Shown: positions 8,694 to 23,001 of the stretch, one piece after another | Layout: every line of letters starts with the position of its first letter | How positions within the stretch are numbered: position 1 is the stretch's first letter | Assembly: GCF_988243305.1 (NCBI RefSeq) | Contig: NZ_OZ547138.1 | Strand: one strand, 5' to 3' | Length of the DNA stretch: 64,000 nt | Source: a plasmid | The notes under the pieces: model-generated | The model's input: only the letters and a program-made list of their open reading frames with translations | Database searches by the model: none | What the model was told of the DNA's origin: nothing | Program-made: the position numbers and the translations under genes

Positions 8694-9200
8694 ACTTCGG
8701 CTCCCGGCTGCCTGGCGGCATCCGGTCGTCAGGCCCGACTCCGACGGGCAGCTGCTGGCGCACCCGCCAGTCTCCGCCGAACCCGCTGGCGCGGTTTCGG
8801 GCTGCCGCTACGGTCCGATGCGTGAAAACCCGGCTTGCAGCGACCGTTCCGGTCGCGCCGCCCCTGTCGCGCCGTGACCTGCGCTCCCTGCACACCTGAC
8901 GGTGTGTGAGGAAACTGCGCCTGATGGCGCAGCAGTCCTCCCTCCTGCCGCCACTCCTGCGGCCTGTTTCCCGCTGTGGACTTTCCGGGGGGCAGACGTA
9001 ACCCCCTCCCGTTCCATCTGTCCAGGGTGAGATGCACCGGCCACAAAATTTTTAGCCATGAACCCGGCAAAAAATTTTGCGTCCGCCCCCGGACAGCTGC
9101 CCCGTGAGGCGGTAAACGGGCCCCCATCGGAAAGGTCCACTGCGGGGAGAAAACCCTGTGAAGTGGACGGCAGGAGGAGCTTTCGCTCCTCTGAAGGGGC
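8694..9200. repeat. Structured GC-rich repeat, family B copy 1 (ssi/Frpo-like) upstream of ssb
   Basis: About 500 bp homologous to 15041-15545 and, in part, 18071-18395. Confidence 0.6.
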
Positions 9201-9260
9201 ACATGAACGTCCCGTCGCCGGTATCCGGTTTATCTCACATCTTTCAGTCAGGAGGTTCTT

Positions 9261-12584: not shown

Positions 12585-13300
12585 GCGCACGTTCACGGGC
12601 ACTGATCCCCCTCAGCGCAGAACAACAGGCCGCCATGCAGGCGGTGGCTGTCACAGAACAACGTCGTCGTCAGGGACGCACACTTTCAGCATGGCCTTAT
12701 GCCACCGCTTTCTTTCGCTGCCTGAATGGCAGTCGCCGGATTTCGCTGACCGATCTCCGCTTTTTTGCCCCTGCGCTGACGAAGGAGGAATTTCATGGCA
12801 ACCGTCTCCTGTGGCTGGCTGCCGTGGATAAACTGATTGAAAGTTTTGGGGAAGTCTGTGTTCTTCCCCTGCCATCCGATGCGGGGCACCGTCTGTTCCC
12901 GTCCGTGCCTTTTCGTGAAGGTGAGCGTCGTCGTCAGAAAACCACGCTGACAGAGCAGAAATACAGCCGCCAGCGGGAACGTGAGGCAGAACGACGGGAA
13001 CTGGAATACCAGACATGTTTTGCTCAGGCGCAGATTGACCTTGCGTTTCATACTCCCGCCACGGTCGGAAGCTGGTTGTCCCGCTGGTCTGGTGTTGTTG
13101 AGGAGCATGATCTGGAAACGATTTTCTGGGGGTGGTGCGGGCGTTTTCCATCACTGTCATCATTTGACCGGTTTTTCTGGCAGGAGGAACCACTCTGGCG
13201 GCTGATTTTTGAAGCCGGTGAGGCCGGTCGTGGTGCACCGGTACAGGTACGTGCACTTGAGCAGTGGATGATCCCGAACAAGCTGGAGAACGTAATATGA
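12581..13300 (+). CDS. psiA: Plasmid SOS inhibition protein A
   Basis: 239 aa immediately downstream of psiB with overlapping start/stop, the conserved psiB-psiA arrangement. Confidence 0.85.
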
Positions 13301-13893
13301 TGAAATCAGACGAAAAATACCAGGTTCCCGCGTGGATGCGACCTCTGTTGCCGTTGCTCTGCAACACCGGGGGGAACGATCCGGAAGAACTGCTGAATGA
13401 TACAGAAACCACTGCCAGTGCGAATGTTGTCCGTTATGTACTGATAGTTGCTGTGCGGTCGCAGGTTGATCTGCTGCAGCTTCTGTACAGGAAAGGGCTG
13501 TTGCGCACAGAGATACCAGGTGGCTTTTCACCGGAAGAAGCGCAGGCACTCCTGGATAATCTGGTGCGCAGCCATATCAGCAAGGCGCTGTCGGGCGAGC
13601 GAATGGCAGCCCGTGACAGAAATGCCGATCTGGCCTGGATTGGACAGCAACTGGTCGATGCCGCCTGGTTTGTCCGTGCCACACTGGAAGCGCATGGGAT
13701 GAGCGTCGGAAATGAGAGTCCCCCTGCTCCGCCGGAGACAATGCCGGACATACAGACACGGGAACTGGTGATGTTGATCAAGCGACTGGCATCATCGCTG
13801 AAAGCGGTGAAACCGGACAGTTGTGTGGTGCGTGAAGCGCAGGACTGGCTGCGCGACAGAAAACTTGTGAGCATCACGGATGTTCTCCGGTGA
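13297..13893 (+). CDS. Hypothetical leading-region protein
   Basis: ATG 13297 overlaps the psiA stop; about 198 aa. Confidence 0.45.
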   Translation: MMKSDEKYQVPAWMRPLLPLLCNTGGNDPEELLNDTETTASANVVRYVLIVAVRSQVDLLQLLYRKGLLRTEIPGGFSPEEAQALLDNLVRSHISKALSGERMAARDRNADLAWIGQQLVDAAWFVRATLEAHGMSVGNESPPAPPETMPDIQTRELVMLIKRLASSLKAVKPDSCVVREAQDWLRDRKLVSITDVLR

Positions 13894-14000
13894 ACCAGTG
13901 GAGGTATGCTTGAGGGGCAGGGACATGCCAGTCATGATCGTTTCATATCAGGGGTGGTCTGGAGGTCATGCGGTGTGCTCCCTGCTCTCGCCGGAATAAG

Positions 14001-14340
14001 GAAGTCGCCGGCGGCTCCGCTTTTACCCGGCCATGCGGGGCATGGCCTTGTGGGTTTTCAGTTATGTGGCCGCCGTGTCGTGTGCGGGCTGTGCCGTGCC
14101 TCCATCGTAGCCGGGCTTCTGCGGGCGGGATGCAAGGTAAGATGAACCGCTGCGGTCACCCGGTCCCTCCTTCCCGTCTGCCGTGATTTTCCGGTCGTTC
14201 ACCCGCTCAGATTTCGCGGTCTCACCCTCCAACTCCCGTCAGCCGTGCGCGTCGGGCTGCGGCTTTCCTTGCGCCCTTGCATCCCTGCAGGCCCGGCAAA
14301 GATGGAGGCACGGCACCGCCCGGTGTCGCAGAACATGTGA
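14001..14340. repeat. Structured GC-rich repeat, family A copy 2 (ssi/Frpo-like) upstream of ardA
   Basis: Near-identical to 7052-7390. Confidence 0.6.
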
Positions 14341-14357
14341 CTATGGAGGATTCGGGA

Positions 14358-14858
14358 ATGTCTGTTGTTGCACCTGCTGTATACGTTGGAACCTGGCACA
14401 AATACAACTGTGGAAGCATCGCCGGACGCTGGTTTGACCTGACCACGTTTGATGATGAGCGCGACTTTTTCGCCGCCTGCCGTGCTCTTCACCAGGATGA
14501 AGCCGATCCTGAACTGATGTTTCAGGATTATGAGGGATTCCCGGGGAATATGGCCTCTGAATGTCATATCAACTGGGCCTGGGTTGAAGGCTTCCGCCGG
14601 GCACGGGATGAAGGCTGCGAAGAGGCTTATCGTCTCTGGGTGGATGATACCGGTGAGACGGATTTTGACAGCTTCCGCGATGCCTGGTGGGGCGAGGCTG
14701 ACAGTGAGGAGGCTTTTGCGGTTGAGTTCGCCAGTGATACCGGCCTGCTGGCTGACGTGCCGGAGACGGTGGCGCTCTATTTTGACTATGAGGCGTATGC
14801 GCGGGATTTATTCCTGGACTCCTTCACCTTTATTGACGGTCATGTGTTCCGTCGGTGA
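14358..14858 (+). CDS. ardA: ArdA antirestriction protein (DNA mimic, anti type I R-M)
   Basis: Internal start MSVVAPAVYVGTWHKYNCGSIAGRWFDL gives 166 aa, highly acidic; about 5 kb from oriT as in IncI1. Confidence 0.9.
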   Translation: MSVVAPAVYVGTWHKYNCGSIAGRWFDLTTFDDERDFFAACRALHQDEADPELMFQDYEGFPGNMASECHINWAWVEGFRRARDEGCEEAYRLWVDDTGETDFDSFRDAWWGEADSEEAFAVEFASDTGLLADVPETVALYFDYEAYARDLFLDSFTFIDGHVFRR

Positions 14859-15040
14859 TTTACTCCCCCGCTCCGGCGGGGGTATGGCCTGCCAGGCCGC
14901 CGGAAAACCCTGGCAGGCTTACGCCTGCCTGAAATGCAGGAGGGCCGCGCCTGCGGCGCTGCCCTTCCTGCCCGTCATGGTGTGAGGCATTTTTCTGTTA
15001 TGTCGTTTCTGTTGTTCTGATTTCCGGAGGCGGGGACACC

Positions 15041-15545
15041 TTCGGCTCCCGGCTGCCTGGCGGCATCCGGTCGTCAGGCCCGACTCCGACAGGCAGCTGC
15101 TGGCGCACCCGCCAGTCTCCGCCGAACCCGCTGGCGCGGTTTCGGGCTGCCGCTACGGTCCGATGTCTGAAAAACCAGGCTTGCAGCGACCGTTCCGGTC
15201 GCGCCGCCTCTGTCGCGCCGTGACCTGCGCTCCCTGCACACCTGACGGTGTGTAAGGAAACTGCGCCTGATGGCGCAGTTGTCTGCCCTTCCGCCGCCAC
15301 CCCTGCGGCCTGTTTCCCGCTGTGGACTTTCCGGGGGCTGAAGCGGCCACAACACGTGTCAGCCGTCCAGGGGGGAGATGTACCAGCCACAAAACTTTTT
15401 GCCGCAAGCGTCAAAAACTTTTGCGTCTGCCCCCGGACAACTGCCCCGTGCCGTGGCTGTCGCTGCCCCATCGGAAAGGTCCACTGCGGGGAGAAACCCC
15501 GAAGAAGTGGACGGCAGAAGGGGCTTTCGCCCCTCCGGGGGAGCA
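15041..15545. repeat. Structured GC-rich repeat, family B copy 2 (ssi/Frpo-like)
   Basis: Homologous to 8694-9200. Confidence 0.6.
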
Positions 15546-15589
15546 ACCGGTCGGCCCGGCGACCTGATTCAGCAGAAGGAGACGTTTTC

Positions 15590-16024
15590 ATGACAGTCAG
15601 CAGCACGATTTCCGTTTTTTGCCGCGACGGGGTGTTCCGTACCGTTTACTGCCACCTGCACGGTGAGCCGACCTGGAACGGTCGCATCCTGCATACCCAC
15701 TATGCCACCGGTCAGCAGGCCGAAGCCCTGGTTGAACACGGTGATATCCGTTGCCTCGGTCCCCGTTGCGACAAACCCGCCGGGCATACGCTTCAGAACC
15801 CGGTGGACGGTGTGACGGCTTATTACGGACGTGACAGTGGTTTCCGGATGGACAGTGAGGCGCGTGAGTACCGTTCTTTCAGGGAGGCCATCGCCACGGA
15901 AAGCACTGAAGAGGTGCGCTTCCATTATGTGTTCATCGACGGCTACTGGAAGGTGATGTACCGCACGCCGGAAGGCTGGAAGATGAAGTCGCTTGCGCTG
16001 GCACTGCGCCGCTGTCCGAAATGA
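15590..16024 (+). CDS. Hypothetical Cys/His-containing protein directly downstream of an ssi-like element
   Basis: ATG 15590 with AGAAGGAG RBS; 144 aa (MTVSSTISVFCRDGVF...). Confidence 0.5.
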   Translation: MTVSSTISVFCRDGVFRTVYCHLHGEPTWNGRILHTHYATGQQAEALVEHGDIRCLGPRCDKPAGHTLQNPVDGVTAYYGRDSGFRMDSEAREYRSFREAIATESTEEVRFHYVFIDGYWKVMYRTPEGWKMKSLALALRRCPK

Positions 16025-16030
16025 AAAAAA

Positions 16031-16051
16031 GGCAGGGCGATAAACCCTGCC
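16031..16051. terminator. Hairpin GGCAGGG-cgataaa-CCCTGCC flanked by an A-run; candidate (bidirectional) terminator
   Basis: Inverted repeat immediately after the stop of the 15590-16024 ORF. Confidence 0.3.
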
Positions 16052-16117
16052 TCTCTCCGCCGGCGCTTCCCCGCCAGGAAGCCCGGCATCTCAATCACTA
16101 TCTATGGAGATTATGCC

Positions 16118-16384
16118 ATGAGACCATCAATTATCTTCGCAACCGCCGAGTATGTAAAGCGTCTGCGTGAAGAGTGCCTGCGGGAGAATAAACCCCTGCA
16201 CCGCCATACCCGCTTCAGACGTCAGGAGCTGGCACAGGATGAGATTAACCCGGACGTCCTGGCGATGAGCGGTCATATCGCCAGACGCTGCAGTGAGCAG
16301 AAGCGGGTGCGTATCCCCGCTATGAAAGCCAGCGAATGGGGCCACCTGCTCCGCGCGCTTGAAATTGAACGGGTCTGCCACTGA
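16118..16384 (+). CDS. Small hypothetical protein
   Basis: 88 aa; GGAG RBS. Confidence 0.35.
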   Translation: MRPSIIFATAEYVKRLREECLRENKPLHRHTRFRRQELAQDEINPDVLAMSGHIARRCSEQKRVRIPAMKASEWGHLLRALEIERVCH

Positions 16385-16448
16385 TTAACCCTTGCCGTCT
16401 GCCTGTGCAGGCGGCAGGATACGTTCAGACATCTCACCAGGAGGAACC

Positions 16449-17351
16449 GTGAGTAAGAAGAAAAACACCACAACGCCCACGCCGCATGATGCCGCGTTCC
16501 GGTCGTTCCTGGCGAATCCCGACGTCGCCAGAGATTTTCTGGAACTGCATCTTCCGGCGGAGTACCGGCAGTTGTGCGACCTGTCCACGCTGAAGCTGGA
16601 ACCCGCCACCTTTGTAGAGCCGGACCTGCATCAGTACGCCAGCGATATCCTCTGGAGCGTGAAAACCACCGGGGGTGAAGACGGCTATGTTTATACGCTC
16701 ATCGAGCACCAGAGCACCGAAAATCTGTACATGCCTTTTCGCATGTTACGTTACAGTGTGGCGGCGATGCAGAGACATCTGGAGCAGCACAAAACGTTGC
16801 CACTGGTGATTCCGGTGCTGTTCTATCACGGTGAGCGCAGCCCGTACCCGTACAGCATGAACTGGCTGGACTGTTTTGAGAATCCGGCACTTGCGGCTAA
16901 AATATACACAAAGCCGTTTCCGCTGGTTGATATCACTGTCGTTGATGACAATGAAATCATGAATCATCGCCGGATGGCCGCACTGACGCTGCTGATGAAG
17001 CATATCCGCCATCGTGACATGATGGAGCTGCTGGACAAACTCCCGAAGGTCATGGTGGAAATTTCAGACGAGCAGGTGCGTGTTCTGATTCATTACATCG
17101 TTAACGCAGGGGACTCTGTATCACCGGAATTTATGCGGGCGCTGGCTGAGCGTCTGCCGCAGCATGAGGATAAACTGATGACTATCGCAGAACGTCTTGA
17201 GCAAAAAGGTCGCCAGGAGGGCAGGATGGAAGGTGCGCTTGAAAAAGCCCTGGCTATTGCGTGCCAGCTTCAGAAAATGGGGATGACGCCGGAGCAGATT
17301 AAGCAGGCTACCGGGCTTTCCGATGACGAACTGAAGAAAATCACTCACTGA
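16449..17351 (+). CDS. Rpn-family (YhgA-like) recombination-promoting nuclease / putative transposase
   Basis: GTG start with AGGAGG RBS; about 300 aa with the YhgA-like core (ASDILWSV...YTLIEHQS) and the characteristic repeated C-terminal tail (ERLEQKGRQEGRMEGALEKA). Confidence 0.7.
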   Translation: MSKKKNTTTPTPHDAAFRSFLANPDVARDFLELHLPAEYRQLCDLSTLKLEPATFVEPDLHQYASDILWSVKTTGGEDGYVYTLIEHQSTENLYMPFRMLRYSVAAMQRHLEQHKTLPLVIPVLFYHGERSPYPYSMNWLDCFENPALAAKIYTKPFPLVDITVVDDNEIMNHRRMAALTLLMKHIRHRDMMELLDKLPKVMVEISDEQVRVLIHYIVNAGDSVSPEFMRALAERLPQHEDKLMTIAERLEQKGRQEGRMEGALEKALAIACQLQKMGMTPEQIKQATGLSDDELKKITH

Positions 17352-17363
17352 TGAGAGTATCAC

Positions 17364-17389
17364 AGCCCGGCAAAATGCCGGGCTTTTTA
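17364..17389 (+). terminator. Rho-independent terminator after the Rpn gene
   Basis: Hairpin AGCCCGGC-aaaat-GCCGGGCT followed by TTTTT. Confidence 0.55.
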
Positions 17390-17413
17390 TCCAGCAGGAG
17401 CAGAGCAAACAGT

Positions 17414-17584
17414 ATGACGCTTGCAGAACGTCTTATACAGAAAGGTTTTGAAAAAGGCGCTCTTGAAGTGGCGCGGGAAATAGCCTGTCGGCTTCGGGAT
17501 ATGGGCTGGCCGCCGAAACGGATTCAGGAGGCTACCGGACTTTCCGGTGAAGAACTGAAAAAACTGTTTCCTGATGAGCAGTAG
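17414..17584 (+). CDS. Small protein homologous to the Rpn C-terminal domain (free-standing RpnS-like candidate)
   Basis: 56 aa from ATG 17414 (CAGGAG RBS); MTLAERLIQKG..GALEVAREIACRLRDMGWPPKRIQEATGLSGEELKKL aligns with the Rpn tail TIAERLEQKG..GALEKALAIACQLQKMGMTPEQIKQATGLSDDELKKI. Confidence 0.45.
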   Translation: MTLAERLIQKGFEKGALEVAREIACRLRDMGWPPKRIQEATGLSGEELKKLFPDEQ

Positions 17585-17614
17585 CCTGGCATTCAGCCAG
17601 GCTGTGAATCACGC

Positions 17615-17866
17615 TCACACATCCTCTGCCGTTTCCCCCAGTTCATTTTCCAGACGCCTGATGATATCTGCCTTACGCATCCCCTGCATGTGAGGCAGCA
17701 GGTCACGGACTGAAAGAGCCTGGGTGGTCCTCCAGACGGTGACGTCCACCTGTTCCGCATTTTCCCAGGCGTGCCATGTTCTCTGCGTCACGCCAAATTC
17801 TCTGGCCGCTTTTTCGCGTGACCAGAGCATGCTTTTTCGCCAGATTCGCAGTTCCCAGTCGGTCAT
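17615..17866 (-). CDS. Small HTH (XRE-like) DNA-binding protein
   Basis: 83 aa; segment LWSREKAAREFGVTQRTWHAWE resembles an HTH; palindromic operators in its upstream region. Confidence 0.5.
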   Translation of the reverse strand: MTDWELRIWRKSMLWSREKAAREFGVTQRTWHAWENAEQVDVTVWRTTQALSVRDLLPHMQGMRKADIIRRLENELGETAEDV

Positions 17867-17880
17867 AAAATACCTTTGAA

Positions 17881-17968
17881 AAAGTGAAAAAACTTCACTT
17901 TATTTTATCACCATAATCACCAAATCAGCGCGAAAAATAAGTGTGAAAAAGTGAAGAAATTTCACTTT
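17881..17968. promoter_or_regulatory. Two palindromic operator-like sites AAAGTGAA-N5-TTCACTTT (17881-17901 and 17948-17968)
   Basis: Two near-identical 21-bp palindromes 67 bp apart in an AT-rich intergenic region upstream of the HTH gene. Confidence 0.4.
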
Positions 17969-18070
17969 TTTTAATTGCAGATGTCGTGCTGTTTTCTCTG
18001 TTTTCACCTGTGCGGGAGTGGTGTGCCAGTGACCACCACATGCCATTGTTGTGCCGTCGTTTTTCTTCAG

Positions 18071-18395
18071 TCGCGCCGGATGCGGCGCTCCCTGCACACC
18101 TGACGGTGTGTAAGGCCACTGCGCCTGATGGCGCAGCTGTCTCTGCCTGTCTGCCGCCGCACTGCGGCCTGTTCTCCGCAGACGGACTTTCCGGGGGAAC
18201 ATACACGACCACATCCCGTTTCAGTTATCCAGGGGAGAGATGTACCAGCCACAAAACTTTTTGCCGCAGGCGTCAAAAACTTTTGCGTCTGCCCCCGGAC
18301 AACTGCCCCGTGACGTGGTGAGCATCCCCCGTCGGAAAGGTCCACTGCGGGGAAATCCCCGAAGACCCGGACGGCAGAAGGAGCTTCGCTCCTCC
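18071..18395. repeat. Structured GC-rich repeat, family B copy 3 (partial; ssi/Frpo-like)
   Basis: Homologous to the right-hand 330 bp of 8694-9200 and 15041-15545. Confidence 0.55.
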
Positions 18396-18442
18396 GGGAA
18401 ATGACCTGGCTGACCCGGCAGTCGTGACGATGAGGAGACAAT

Positions 18443-19294
18443 GTGATGAATCAGACTTTACCCACTGCTGACCTGAATACTGCCGGCACGACAGATATTA
18501 TTCCGTCTGTGGCCATCGACCGCATTATCGCGCAGCGTAACGAAGGTATTGCACTGTTCATGCAGGCGATGGAATGCCTGGCGACAGCACGCAGGATTCT
18601 GCTCGATGCTTCTGGTGACATTTTTCTCTACGGGTTTGAAGACTGCGTGACTGACTCTGTTCGATGCATGGATAAACCGGAAGAAGCAAAAAAGAATATC
18701 ACCCGTCTTGCCGACCGTAAAATCTGGGACCGCCTGATGGCGGATACGGGGATGTACACCTTCATGAGTTCATGCCAGCGTGATGAGTGGAACAGCCAGC
18801 TGATGAGCGACACCTGTCCTGAAATCACCCTGGACAATGTGCTGGCAACTTTTCGCCATCTGAATGCCAGCAAGATGCAGACATTTGAACAGAGACTGAT
18901 TGATGTCTACCGGAAATTGTCATGGGATTACAGAACCAATAATCCCTGCCGTCTGGGCAAGAAAATCATTATTGAAAACCTGCTGTACCGCTGGAGTAAC
19001 GGGCGTGTGACGCTGGACTGCAGCGGACGGGAGGCACTGGATGACCTGGTACGTCCGTTTTATCTGCTGGAGGGACGCAACGTTCCTGACTTCAGGAACA
19101 GCATCGGGGCGCAGTATGGTGAATATCTCGGGAACGGCGATAATGTCGGTAAGCTGTTAGAAGGGGAATATTTTACGGTGCGTGGCTACCAGAAAGGGAC
19201 CGTACACATTGTCTTTAAGCGTCCTGACCTTGTTGAAAAACTGAATGATATTATTGCACGGCATTATCCTGGTGCATTGCCGCCACGAGTCTGA
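18443..19294 (+). CDS. Hypothetical protein directly downstream of an ssi-like element
   Basis: 283-aa ORF with GAGGAG RBS, followed by a terminator. Confidence 0.5.
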   Translation: MMNQTLPTADLNTAGTTDIIPSVAIDRIIAQRNEGIALFMQAMECLATARRILLDASGDIFLYGFEDCVTDSVRCMDKPEEAKKNITRLADRKIWDRLMADTGMYTFMSSCQRDEWNSQLMSDTCPEITLDNVLATFRHLNASKMQTFEQRLIDVYRKLSWDYRTNNPCRLGKKIIIENLLYRWSNGRVTLDCSGREALDDLVRPFYLLEGRNVPDFRNSIGAQYGEYLGNGDNVGKLLEGEYFTVRGYQKGTVHIVFKRPDLVEKLNDIIARHYPGALPPRV

Positions 19295-19304
19295 TTAAAC
19301 AGAA

Positions 19305-19336
19305 AAGCCCTGGTATTTATGCCGGGGCTTTTTTTC
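19305..19336 (+). terminator. Rho-independent terminator candidate
   Basis: Imperfect hairpin AGCCCTGG...CCGGGGCT followed by TTTTTTT. Confidence 0.5.
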
Positions 19337-19378
19337 TGTAATCATCATAATCTCAGAACACGATGTGACATTGTCACA

Positions 19379-19714
19379 TCAATTGTTGTTCATATCGATG
19401 CCATCTTTCCTGCCTGAATCTGTCTTTTTAGGTGCTGTTTTAGAGGAAGAACGGCGGGATGGTTTTTTCGATTCTGCTTCCCGAATAATGTCGCGAAGTG
19501 CTTTCTCTCCTACTTCATACCCTGCATTTTTGAGCGTGTCACGAACATCTGCCAGTGTATAACCCTTTGTCCTTACCAGGACAATGATGTCATCACGAAT
19601 GGCATCAAGAAAATCACGCAATGTTTTCCGTTGAGCGGTGAGGTCCGGCAATTCCGATAAGGCAGCTTTTGCCAGCTGGATGTCATCATCTGAGTAAAAT
19701 TTTTTAGAAGCCAT
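19379..19714 (-). CDS. Hypothetical protein with basic Ser/Lys-rich C-terminal tail, divergent from nikA next to oriT
   Basis: ATG 19714 (MASKKFYSDDDIQ) with GAGAGA RBS; 111 aa. Confidence 0.45.
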   Translation of the reverse strand: MASKKFYSDDDIQLAKAALSELPDLTAQRKTLRDFLDAIRDDIIVLVRTKGYTLADVRDTLKNAGYEVGEKALRDIIREAESKKPSRRSSSKTAPKKTDSGRKDGIDMNNN

Positions 19715-19769
19715 TGGCACTTTCTCTCTGTTTTATGTTGAAGCCTGATTTTATCACCAAAACTGCCTC

Positions 19770-19935
19770 CTGGCAGGGCTGCGCCCTGCCTCTGCCGTCT
19801 GCATAAGACTATGATGCACAAAAATAACAGGCTATAATTGACCGAAAAACGGGACAGGATGTGGGAATGTCGGACCGCGCACGCGCACTCAGACATTCCC
19901 CACCTGGTCAGGGCTTTGCCCCGACACCCCGGTAA
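19770..19935 (-). other. oriT: Origin of transfer (oriT) region with inverted repeats; nick predicted on the minus strand
   Basis: Intergenic region immediately upstream of nikA-nikB; inverted repeats GGCAGGGC-tgc-GCCCTGCC (19783-19801) and GGAATGTC...GACATTCC (19864-19900); sequence resembles my recollection of the R64 nick region. Confidence 0.5.
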
Positions 19936-19945
19936 GGAGCAGACC

Positions 19946-20278
19946 ATGAGTGAGAAGAAAACCCGAACGGGCAGTGAGAACAGGAAGAGAATTGTAAAAT
20001 TCACGGCGAGATTCACGGAGGATGAGGCTGAAATCGTAAGAGAAAAAGCGGAGTCAAGTGGACAGACGGTTTCAACATTTATACGAAGTTCTTCACTGGA
20101 TAAGGTGGTTAACTGCCGTACTGACGACCGTATGATTGATGAGATTATGCGTCTTGGCCGCCTTCAGAAGCATCTGTTTGTGGAGGGAAAACGCACTGGT
20201 GATAAGGAGTATGCAGAGGTTCTTGTTGCCATTACTGAATATGTCAATGCTCTGCGAAGAGACTTAATGGGACGCTGA
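19946..20278 (+). CDS. nikA: Relaxosome accessory protein NikA (RHH, oriT binding)
   Basis: 110 aa MSEKKTRTGSENRKRIVKFTARFTEDEAEIV with AAGGAG RBS; directly upstream of the relaxase. Confidence 0.9.
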   Translation: MSEKKTRTGSENRKRIVKFTARFTEDEAEIVREKAESSGQTVSTFIRSSSLDKVVNCRTDDRMIDEIMRLGRLQKHLFVEGKRTGDKEYAEVLVAITEYVNALRRDLMGR

Positions 20279-20289
20279 GATAACTGCTG

Positions 20290-23001
20290 ATGAATGCCAT
20301 TATTCCGCACAAAAGACGTGACGGCAGGTCTTCCTTTGAAGACCTGATTGCGTACACGTCTGTGCGGGATGATGTGCAGGAAAATGAGCTCACAGAAGAC
20401 AGCGAAATCAAGAGTGATGTCCCTCACCGCAACCGTTTCAGACGGCTTGTTGATTATGCAACACGCCTGCGTAACGAAAAATTTGTCTCCCTGATTGATG
20501 TGATGAAGGACGGCAGTCAGTGGGTAAATTTCTATGGCGTAACCTGTTTCCATAACTGCAATTCACTGGAAACAGCTGCTGAAGAGATGCAGTACAAGGC
20601 GGACAAAGCTGTTTTTTCCCGTAATGATACAGACCCCGTTTTCCACTACATTCTTTCCTGGCCTGCGCATGAAAGCCCGCGTCCTGAGCAGCTTTTTGAC
20701 TGTGTGCGTCACACACTGAAATCTCTTGAACTCTCAAAACATCAGTACGTGGCTGCCGTTCATACGGACACGGATAATCTGCATGTGCATGTTGCCGTGA
20801 ATCGTGTACATCCTGAAACTGGTTATATTAACTGGCTTTCCTGGAGCCAGGAAAAACTCAGCCGTGCATGTCGTGAACTTGAACTTAAGCACGGATTCGC
20901 GCCTGATAATGGCTGCTTTGTGCATGCACCCGGCAACCGTATTGTGCGCAAAACAGCGCTGGTACGTGAGCGCCGTAATGCCTGGCGACGCGGGAAAAAG
21001 CAGACGTTCAGGGAATATATTGCGCAGATGTCGATTGCCGGGCTGCGTGAAGAGCCCGCACAAGACTGGTTGTCTTTGCATAAACGGCTGGCCAGTGATG
21101 GTCTGTATATCACGATGCAGGAAGGGGAACTGGTGGTGAAGGATGGCTGGGACAGAGCGCGGGAAGGTGTTGCACTCAGTTCGTTCGGACCGTCATGGAC
21201 AGCTGAAAAACTGGGGCGGAAACTGGGGGAATATCAGCCTGTACCGACAGATATTTTCAGTCAGGTGGGGACACCCGGTCGTTATGATCCGGAAGCCATA
21301 AACGTTGATATCCGGCCGGAAAAAGTGGCAGAAACGGAGAGTCTGAAACAGTACGCCTGCCGTCATTTTGCCGAACGCTTACCGGAAATGGCGAGAAATG
21401 GTGAGCTGGAAAGTTGCCTGGATGTGCACAGAACTCTGGCAAAGGCTGGATTATGGATGGGGATCCAGCACGGGCATCTGGTACTGCATGATGGATTTGA
21501 TAAACAACAGACACCAGTACGTGCAGACAGTGTGTGGCCGTTAATGACGCTGGATTATATGCAGGATCTGGATGGTGGATGGCAGCCTGTACCGAAGGAT
21601 ATTTTTACTCAGGTTATACCCGGAGAACGATTCCGGGGACGTAATCTTGGTACTCAGGCTGTCAGTGATTACGAATGGTATCGTATTCGGATGGGGACAG
21701 GTCCACAGGGAGCAATAAAGCGCGAACTGTTTTCCGATAAGGAAAGTCTGTGGGGGTACACGACTGTTCAGTGTGAGTCGTTGATTGAAGATATGATCGC
21801 GGGCGGGAATTTCAGCTGGCAGGCGTGCCATGAGATGTTTGCGCGTAAAGGGCTTATGTTGCAGAAACAGCATCATGGTCTTGTGATTGTGGATGCGTTT
21901 AATCATGAGCTCACACCAGTGAAGGCCAGCAGTATCCACCCGGATTTGACGTTATCCAGGGCTGAGCCGCAGGCAGGGCCATTTGAGATTGCAGGTGCAG
22001 ATATATTTGAACGGGTGAAGCCTGAATGTCGCTACAATCCGGAACTTGCTGCCAGCGATGAAGTGGAGCTCGGCTTCCGGCGCGATCCTGTACTGCGTCG
22101 TGAACGCCGTGAAGCCCGTGCAGCTGCGCGGGAAGATTTGCGCGCGCGTTATCTTGCATGGAAGGAGCACTGGCGTAAACCCGACTTACGTTACGGAGAA
22201 CGGTTACGGGAAATTCATGCTGCCTGCCGTCGGCGCAAGGCGTATATCCGTGTGCAGTTCCGGGATCCACAATTGCGTAAGCTGCATTACCATATTGCAG
22301 AAGTGCAGCGTATGCAGGCGCTGATCAGGCTGAAGGAGAGTGTGAAGGAAGAGCGGTTGTCACTGATTGCGGAGGGTAAGTGGTATCCTTTGTCCTACCG
22401 GCAGTGGGTGGAGCAACAGGCGGTACAGGGAGACAGAGCTGCATTATCACAGTTACGTGGCTGGGATTATCGTGATCGTCGCAAAGACAAGCGACGAACA
22501 ACGAATGCCGACCGCTGCGTGATTCTCTGTGAACCGGGAGGAACTCCACTTTATGAAGACACTGGCGTTCTCGAAGCCCGTCTGCAGAAAGATGGCAGTG
22601 TGCGTTTTCGTGATCGGAGGAATGGCGAGTTAGTCTGTGTGGATTATGGGGACCGTGTGGTGTTCTACCATCATCAGGACAGAAATGAACTGGTGGATAA
22701 GCTGAATCTGATTGCTCCTGTATTGTTTGATCGTGAGCCAAGAATGGGTTTTGAACCGGAAGGCTCATATCAACAGTTTAATGATGTATTTGCGGAAATG
22801 GTGGCCTGGCATAATGCAGCTGGAATAACCGGAAGTGGACACTTTGTAATCAGCCGCCCGGATGTGGATTTACATCGTCAGCGTAGTGAACAGTACTACC
22901 ACGAATATATCAGGCAACAGAAAAGCATATCCGGGGGGCATGGCGCATCTTATGCTCCAGTTCAGGATAATGAGTGGACGCCACCATCACCTGGAATGTA
23001 G
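20290..23001 (+). CDS. nikB: MOBP-family relaxase NikB
   Basis: 903-aa ORF with relaxase histidine motif HVHVAVNRVHPETG; nikA-nikB organisation typical of IncI-complex plasmids. Confidence 0.9.
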   Translation: MNAIIPHKRRDGRSSFEDLIAYTSVRDDVQENELTEDSEIKSDVPHRNRFRRLVDYATRLRNEKFVSLIDVMKDGSQWVNFYGVTCFHNCNSLETAAEEMQYKADKAVFSRNDTDPVFHYILSWPAHESPRPEQLFDCVRHTLKSLELSKHQYVAAVHTDTDNLHVHVAVNRVHPETGYINWLSWSQEKLSRACRELELKHGFAPDNGCFVHAPGNRIVRKTALVRERRNAWRRGKKQTFREYIAQMSIAGLREEPAQDWLSLHKRLASDGLYITMQEGELVVKDGWDRAREGVALSSFGPSWTAEKLGRKLGEYQPVPTDIFSQVGTPGRYDPEAINVDIRPEKVAETESLKQYACRHFAERLPEMARNGELESCLDVHRTLAKAGLWMGIQHGHLVLHDGFDKQQTPVRADSVWPLMTLDYMQDLDGGWQPVPKDIFTQVIPGERFRGRNLGTQAVSDYEWYRIRMGTGPQGAIKRELFSDKESLWGYTTVQCESLIEDMIAGGNFSWQACHEMFARKGLMLQKQHHGLVIVDAFNHELTPVKASSIHPDLTLSRAEPQAGPFEIAGADIFERVKPECRYNPELAASDEVELGFRRDPVLRRERREARAAAREDLRARYLAWKEHWRKPDLRYGERLREIHAACRRRKAYIRVQFRDPQLRKLHYHIAEVQRMQALIRLKESVKEERLSLIAEGKWYPLSYRQWVEQQAVQGDRAALSQLRGWDYRDRRKDKRRTTNADRCVILCEPGGTPLYEDTGVLEARLQKDGSVRFRDRRNGELVCVDYGDRVVFYHHQDRNELVDKLNLIAPVLFDREPRMGFEPEGSYQQFNDVFAEMVAWHNAAGITGSGHFVISRPDVDLHRQRSEQYYHEYIRQQKSISGGHGASYAPVQDNEWTPPSPGM

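Follow-up and report, generated by a model that had tools for sequence, protein, structure and literature searches.

Two exact 21-bp palindromes of one consensus stand upstream of a gene for an 83-aa helix-turn-helix (HTH) protein on a plasmid, and they raise the question of what this protein controls: itself, its neighbors, or both. In the 64,000-nucleotide stretch that we analyzed, hereafter the window, the gene occupies positions 17615-17866 on the minus strand. A first-pass annotation had suggested an autoregulated repressor that might also gate an adjacent reading frame driven by a single-strand promoter (ssi) or a pair of Rpn genes. The evidence assembled here favors the first of these roles: the 83-aa protein is probably a dimeric XRE-fold repressor of its own promoter, which would act through both palindromes, the putative operators O1 and O2.

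The window is the leading region, the part transferred first, of an IncI-gamma/K1 conjugative resistance plasmid. The 1.2 kb around the locus matches IncI-gamma/K1 conjugative plasmids at 100% identity and ∼2000 further enterobacterial plasmids, nearly all of them conjugative, at 90-99%. As read from the annotation of the best match and the list of open reading frames, the genes follow the classical IncI leading-region order of ssb, a ParB-like gene, psiB, psiA, ardA, Rpn, an Rpn-tail ORF, and DUF4942, all on the plus strand and pointing toward oriT and nikA-nikB at ∼19.8-23 kb. Since leading genes are read from the transferred strand, the transferred strand is the minus strand of the window. 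The HTH gene (WP_032180366.1), publicly named either "helix-turn-helix transcriptional regulator" or, in R64-type annotation, "YgeA", is the sole minus-strand gene of the leading region apart from a MobC/YggA-like gene beside oriT. It is monocistronic: its downstream neighbors, the Rpn-family nuclease gene (16392-17351, plus strand) and the small ORF resembling the C-terminal tail of Rpn (17351-17584, plus strand), are convergent with it, and its upstream neighbor, the DUF4942 gene (18443-19294, plus strand; Pfam PF13708, E 2e-50), which is the first leading-region gene after oriT, is divergent. A hairpin read from the sequence, AGCCTGGC-ATTCA-GCCAGGCT at 17585-17605, lies where the 3′ ends of the HTH gene and the Rpn-tail ORF converge and is a possible bidirectional terminator; it has no T-run, and a terminator scan did not call it. 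The gene family has probably been counted before. Family 22 in the leading-region survey of Samuel et al. (Nature 2024, Supplementary Table 1) has 2333 members at a median position of 2 from oriT, oriented opposite to the T-strand and annotated as HTH regulators with a few aca6 HMM hits; we match it to the present gene by position, orientation, and abundance rather than by accession. The family is listed in that work, and its operators and function are not described there.

Two further features of this neighborhood deserve mention in their own right. The small ORF at 17351-17584 matches only the C-terminal tail of Rpn (TIGR01784 positions 219-273, E 1.7e-6), and a terminator-like hairpin with a T-run lies at 17364-17384, inside its annotated 5′ end, so the true start may be the ATG at 17414 (MTLAERL...); if begun there, the ORF may give a separately expressed Rpn-tail peptide. 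Beside oriT, a 113-aa gene annotated "MobC" (19379-19720, minus strand) appears to be the YggA gene of R64, going by its position beside nikA, and is a second small putative minus-strand regulator near the HTH gene. Deletion of Orf35 of pCTX-M3, a homologue of YggA, derepresses nikAB and raises mobilization more than 100-fold (PMC6112013).

The palindromes themselves are exactly where the first-pass annotation had placed them. The proximal site O1, AAAGTGAA-N5-TTCACTTT (AAAGTGAAAAAACTTCACTTT), occupies 17881-17901, and the distal site O2, AAAGTGAAGAAATTTCACTTT, which has the same consensus, occupies 17948-17968; both were identified by exact match and by conservation, and the distance between them is the 67 bp claimed, start to start as well as center to center. 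O1 begins 15 bp upstream of the ATG of the HTH gene. Each operator forms the core of one copy of a 42-nt direct repeat (family D1; 17867-17908 and 17934-17975, 83% identical), and together the repeats make up a control region of 109 bp, 17867-17975, that is indeed AT-rich, with a GC content of 25.7% against 55% for the window. When up to two mismatches are allowed, the 21-bp motif has exactly two matches in the 64-kb window, O1 and O2, for a chance expectation of 0.01 from dinucleotide-preserving shuffles, and none of 100 shuffles gave two or more matches. A search of the entire 126-kb reference plasmid, for which the window was combined with L015 and L016, gave no further operator with fewer than four mismatches; two matches to the core with one mismatch fall in IS26 copies, both without the A/T flanks. 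The centers of the half-sites are ∼12 bp apart, a spacing that fits a dimer bound in successive major grooves.

Palindromes in such DNA might instead belong to some other known element, be it ssi/Frpo, oriT, or a host-factor site, or be chance symmetry with no relation to the HTH protein. Symmetry is commoner in AT-rich DNA, on the transferred strand each palindrome can fold back into a small hairpin (-5.8 and -7.8 kcal/mol), and GTGA-N7-TCAC is one base off the spacing of a CRP site. The shuffles speak against chance, and homology to ssi begins only at 18067, ∼100 bp beyond the distal palindrome. The palindromes thus lie just before the GC-rich ssi-like element, as had been noted, and are not part of it; the two other ssi copies of the window are without such sites. 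An Rfam search of 13000-20500 returned two chance-level matches only, and no family covers the palindrome region. A known element enclosing the palindromes, which the first-pass annotation had named as one outcome that would speak against its proposal, was therefore not found with either ssi homology or Rfam. We regard this alternative as extremely improbable, and the homologues described below weigh against it further.

The 83-aa gene is a real open reading frame, as had been claimed: it is annotated in ∼2000 plasmids, and comparison with an 83%-identical Salmonella variant gives a dN/dS of 0.07-0.09 at a dS of 1.0-1.3, which indicates strong purifying selection on the protein. Sequence profiles place it near, and below, the thresholds for HTH families, with 21 bits for Pfam HTH_31 against a cut-off of 27 and 16.8 for HTH_3 against 23, both over residues 5-40. 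An AlphaFold2 model built from a 40-sequence alignment has a pLDDT of 89.8 and five helices (3-12, 17-24, 28-35, 42-60, and 65-76), in which helix 2, a turn, and helix 3 form the characteristic unit within a compact helical HTH fold. Nearly all of the best Foldseek matches are to repressors of the XRE type, with Aca2 first, followed by HipB, HigA2, Aca1, and C.Esp1396I; the probability reaches 0.9 with an rmsd of 1.4-2.4 over 48-56 columns, and none of these matches is significant, the best E being 0.48 for a domain so small that all E-values here exceed 0.4. A phmmer search of the PDB finds Aca2 proteins only, through the first 38-39 residues (E 6e-4), and 1329 relatives emerge at E ≤0.001 when a profile is run against 1.8 billion representative proteins. 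Taken with the model, these matches suggest an XRE-fold HTH protein that is DNA-binding in its fold. The protein of the window starts MTDWEL; at position 3 (codon 17858-17860), glycine is found in 34 of the other 39 relatives in the alignment (MTG[WYF]EL). Only six plasmid records reach an identity of ≥99% to the version of the window.

We considered whether this fold could serve another function. A type II antitoxin of the HipB/HigA/MqsA type was rejected, there being no same-strand neighbor and no cotranscribed toxin gene, and NCBIfam matches are far below cut-off. An antitoxin of the Rpn pair was rejected on the convergent orientation and on the lack of Rpn in L003, L004, L009, and L010, four of the homologous loci introduced below. 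A restriction-modification controller (C) protein was set aside as well, with no linked restriction gene and operators 67 bp apart. The literature search (ygeA, IncI1/pESBL regulators, leading-region repressors) found no publication on the 83-aa protein; the "ygeA" of the F plasmid is a different gene, downstream of Frpo1, and AcrIE9/10a is a different HTH-like protein.

The rank of Aca2 as best match in both sequence and fold suggests a more specific alternative, namely an Aca-like autorepressor that damps a strong anti-defense promoter after an initial burst. The few aca6 HMM hits in the probable same family of Samuel et al. point the same way, as does a leading region rich in anti-defense genes (ArdA, PsiB, methylases, KlcA-like). 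The similarity is nevertheless confined to the first 38-39 residues, the C-terminal domain of Aca2 is absent, the monocistronic gene with its convergent neighbors leaves no acr-type gene in an operon, and the plasmid has no other operators. We consider this reading very unlikely.

If the palindromes are operators of the HTH protein, they would be expected to travel with its gene, and they do. By tblastn, the family is present in 3688 plasmids, ∼2000 of them close IncI-type and ∼1660 with a homologue below 60% identity. We sampled 20 loci from seven protein groups and searched 220 bp of upstream DNA per gene. Homologues of 31-83% identity have AAGTG-N9-11-CACTT palindromes within ∼100 bp upstream of their own start codons, and a site equivalent to O1 is found in L003, L004, L010, L011, L014, L017, and L020. 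In three loci with 83% identity and the synteny of the window (L011, L014, L017), two palindromes with mixed GTGAA/GTGTA half-sites occupy the same positions as in the window. The leading regions of other MOBP plasmids (L003, L004, L010; 31-37% identity) have two AAGTGCA-N5-TGCACTT sites 56-57 bp apart, and a leading-region-like locus, L009, has one such site with the GTGCA half-site. More distant versions include CGCAAAGTGTCA-N3-TGACACTTTGCG with GTGTCA half-sites in two phage-plasmid-like loci (L007, L019), an upstream palindrome AAGGTGACA...TGACACTTT in L013, AAAATGTTCA-N4-TGAACATTTT with ATGTTCA half-sites in L006 and L021, and two TGCAGA(A/T)TCTGCA-type sites in L005 and L012. Two sites are present in eight of the nine leading-region loci examined and mostly one elsewhere. 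The genomic contexts differ, and the motif also stands beside the HTH gene in nonleading contexts and in phage-plasmids that lack ssi or oriT; it thus accompanies the gene whatever its neighbors, which is a point against assigning the palindromes to another element. The inner bases of the half-site vary with the protein group; the recognition helices are TQRTWHAW (window), TLRTWHAW (L011), and SLRTWKVY (L003).

A closer look at the upstream DNA of the window and L011 reveals what is kept. Each operator is identical at 18 of 21 positions (15 of 16 for the arms of O1), a predicted extended -10 element, TGATAAAAT, is identical at 9 of 9, and the AAGG-bearing leader at 13 of 14, whereas the 37-bp spacer between the operators is 32% identical and the coding dS is ∼1.1. 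In both upstream alignments (A4 and A5), no block other than TAAAAT and the two palindromes is conserved. This pattern reads as a footprint: synonymous sites are saturated (dS ∼1.1), yet the palindromes, the extended -10, and the ribosome-binding site are conserved. RefSeq annotates a 65-aa hypothetical protein (WP_024192906.1; 17900-18097, minus strand) that covers both operators and overlaps the margin of the ssi element; it is probably spurious because the inter-operator stretch that it spans is only 32% conserved between the window and L011.

Some members of the family have been put to other settings. Several distant ones, among L008, L018, L009, and L021, adjoin plasmid recA-umuD-umuC or umuDC operons, either divergently or directly upstream, and Samuel et al. 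note that most umu-like operons of leading regions likewise run counter to the transferred strand. A pOXA-48-type IncL plasmid has a homologue of 29-31% identity with a TTG start (L002, 4001-4249), set within a same-strand string of a hypothetical gene, the homologue, and a restriction-endonuclease-like gene, upstream of a resolvase gene and parM. No palindrome lies directly upstream of this homologue, and the locus represents a different use of the same protein family.

The conserved blocks also point to the promoter on which such a repressor would act. The predicted extended -10 TGATAAAAT lies at 17902-17910 on the minus strand, with its TAAAAT hexamer at 17907-17902, and is followed, past O1, by a 5′ leader (17867-17880, minus strand) in which a ribosome-binding site, AAGG at 17876-17873, ends six bases before the ATG. 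TAAAAT abuts the proximal palindrome in the window, L011, L003, L004, and L010, and in the IncI group it is preceded by TG. From this arrangement we infer a transcription start near 17895, inside O1. A consensus promoter scan of 17300-18500 called no sigma-70 site on either strand; it missed the HTH promoter because there is no good -35, so this promoter is read from the conserved extended -10 alone, and the scan offers no candidate for a divergent one. We considered a second promoter at the distal repeat and rejected it, since its -10-like hexamer lacks the final T and is unconserved in the alignments; neither side of the distal site has a conserved promoter element in the two alignments.

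Taken together, a motif that travels with the gene, a half-site that shifts with the protein group, and an O1 that abuts a conserved -10 bear out the earlier proposal of an autoregulated repressor, as far as sequence can. The 83-aa protein would bind, probably as a dimer, to the two operators upstream of its own gene. O1 directly follows the extended -10 and covers the predicted start, so bound protein would occlude RNA polymerase, and the gene would limit its own expression by classical negative autoregulation. O2, 67 bp away, would be a second binding site, for which extra occupancy, a roadblock, or control of something unseen are candidate roles. The center-to-center spacing of the operators is 67 bp in the window, 56-57 bp in L003, L004, and L010, and 37 bp in L005; these values amount to ∼n + 0.4-0.5 helical turns and place the sites on opposite faces of the helix, so simple looping is not favored. 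Such a circuit is real and conserved but ordinary. A repressor of itself only is an incomplete explanation for the strong purifying selection on the gene, and plain autoregulation leaves one further feature unexplained, the unusual and conserved place of the gene next to a single-strand promoter.

That promoter element is the third Frpo/ssi-type copy in the window (18067-18442, plus strand), recognized from repeat families and from its single-strand fold; the other copies are at ∼9065-9217 and 15209-15561, and homology between the third copy and the stretch 15209-15456 starts at 18067. On the single-stranded transferred strand, it folds into a long hairpin (-131.7 kcal/mol, z = -9.4; main hairpin ∼18135-18380). 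Class-1 ssDNA promoters ssi1-3 have been mapped in the IncI1 plasmid pESBL (PMC12672017), and by analogy the third element matches Frpo/ssi class 1 and would direct transcription of the DUF4942 gene off the transferred strand. The stretch upstream of ardA (∼13850-14300) shows only poor alignment with the three ssi copies and may correspond to the other, "class 2" hairpin reported in pESBL. Only the oriT-proximal ssi copy has the HTH/operator module beside it.

Does the HTH protein then gate its neighbors, as the first-pass annotation had suggested? For the Rpn pair, the suggestion fails on geometry: the pair lies downstream of the HTH gene and points toward it, and so O1/O2 cannot control its promoter. 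For the ssi-driven DUF4942 unit, the protein could in principle bind O1/O2 once the DNA is duplex and silence, insulate, or time the oriT-proximal unit. An order of leading gene(s), a GC-rich region of 400-750 bp, two operators, and the antisense HTH gene is kept in the window, L003, L004, L010, and L011, and the GC-rich regions fold as long single-strand hairpins despite their different sequence classes (z of -9.4, -5.5, -5.3, and -7.0). The pairing of operators in leading regions, set against the mostly single sites elsewhere, agrees with such a switch, and a leading-region repressor has a precedent in ArdK of R388/pKM101. Against this, no sigma-70-like promoter faces DUF4942 in or near the operators, nothing is conserved beyond O2, and some distance separates O2 from the ssi homology (∼100 bp) and from the main hairpin (∼170 bp). 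The divergent gene also varies among plasmids (DUF4942, DUF945/DUF932, small hypothetical proteins), and single-strand promoters are reported to switch off by themselves upon conversion to duplex (PMC12672017). With no other operator on the plasmid and no divergent promoter found, gating of either DUF4942 or the Rpn pair is unsupported, and we consider control of the DUF4942 unit unlikely; the conserved adjacency of hairpin, operators, and antisense HTH gene still leaves room for a functional tie to the first leading transcription unit.

The orientation of the gene bears on what such a link might be. The transferred strand carries the sense sequence of the HTH gene, so no transcription can occur until the complementary strand is made, and the ssi promoter fires before the HTH gene is transcribable at all. 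The HTH gene would accordingly be a double-strand-stage gene at the upstream edge of the oriT-proximal single-strand-promoter unit. One could go further and see in the antisense gene and its two operators a conserved "duplex-stage sensor" coupled to the oriT-proximal single-strand promoter of MOBP/MPF_I plasmids, a proposal that we hold to be quite unlikely. The gene would fire only once complementary-strand synthesis arrives, just before the hairpin that stalls this synthesis, and a burst followed by self-shut-off would mark or enforce the switch from a zygotic (single-strand) to a vegetative (double-strand) program. The protein might do so by acting as a roadblock or insulator that borders the first leading unit; alternatively, supercoiling from divergent transcription might keep the hairpin promoter extruded until repressor accumulates.

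The purifying selection that self-control leaves partly unexplained could also come from elsewhere, if the main targets were outside the plasmid, on the host chromosome or on coresident elements, and O1/O2 only set the protein level. Strong constraint without any other target on the plasmid is what this would predict, and the homologues beside plasmid recA/umuDC operons hint at host stress responses. Among the exact-motif matches listed from 100,044 species genomes, though, the hits are single and scattered over unrelated phyla, and no candidate site in a host emerged. Operator specificity also diverges among plasmid groups, which fits self-recognition better than a conserved host target. External targets as the main role are in our view very doubtful, and repression of its own promoter remains the reading that we prefer for the 83-aa protein.

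Plasmids of the IncI complex rank among the main carriers of ESBL genes and other resistance determinants, and the HTH gene is present in ∼2000 sequenced plasmids with relatives in ∼1600 more. How leading genes are switched on from ssDNA and then silenced is under active study (PMC9849209, PMC12672017, PMC11541004). That work centers on genes readable from the transferred strand; the HTH regulator is a conserved exception in orientation, with a clearly defined and easily testable putative operator pair. If it acts on itself only, the result is a minor gain in annotation, in that "YgeA" receives a named operator and promoter; control of the first leading unit, or a part in marking the transition from single to double strand, would make it a missing regulatory layer in plasmid establishment.

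Among known systems, Aca2 is a small repressor encoded on mobile elements, and it binds inverted repeats within the promoter of its own gene. The Aca2 of phage ZF40 of Pectobacterium and its relatives (PDB 7vjp, 7ezy; cited in PMC12248084) is the closest in N-terminal HTH sequence and the top fold match. It differs in length and architecture, having 120-125 aa with a distinct C-terminal dimerization domain where the HTH protein has 83 aa and two C-terminal helices; the 83-aa protein has no Pfam DUF1870 match, and its homology to Aca2 does not extend over the full length. Aca2 is also cotranscribed with an anti-CRISPR gene, whereas the HTH gene is monocistronic. ArdK of the IncW plasmid R388 and the IncN plasmid pKM101, a KorA-family HTH repressor of establishment and leading-region promoters that allows a burst and then shut-off (PMC9723621), is alike in being a plasmid-encoded HTH repressor in the region that enters the recipient first. 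It belongs to another fold family (Foldseek probability 0.05) and binds direct repeats at the -35 of five promoters, unlike the two inverted repeats at a single locus here. The Cro/CI, HipB/HigA, and C proteins share with the HTH protein the five-helix XRE fold, palindromic operators whose half-sites are spaced by about one helical turn, and negative autoregulation, which for our protein is predicted. HipB/HigA and the C proteins differ in their partners, as the HTH gene has no toxin or restriction-modification gene in its operon. C-boxes are two adjacent palindromes within ∼35 bp, against 56-67 bp between the operators of the HTH family. This comparison would place the HTH protein among the autoregulated XRE-type repressors, from which it stands out by its conserved antisense position in the leading region.
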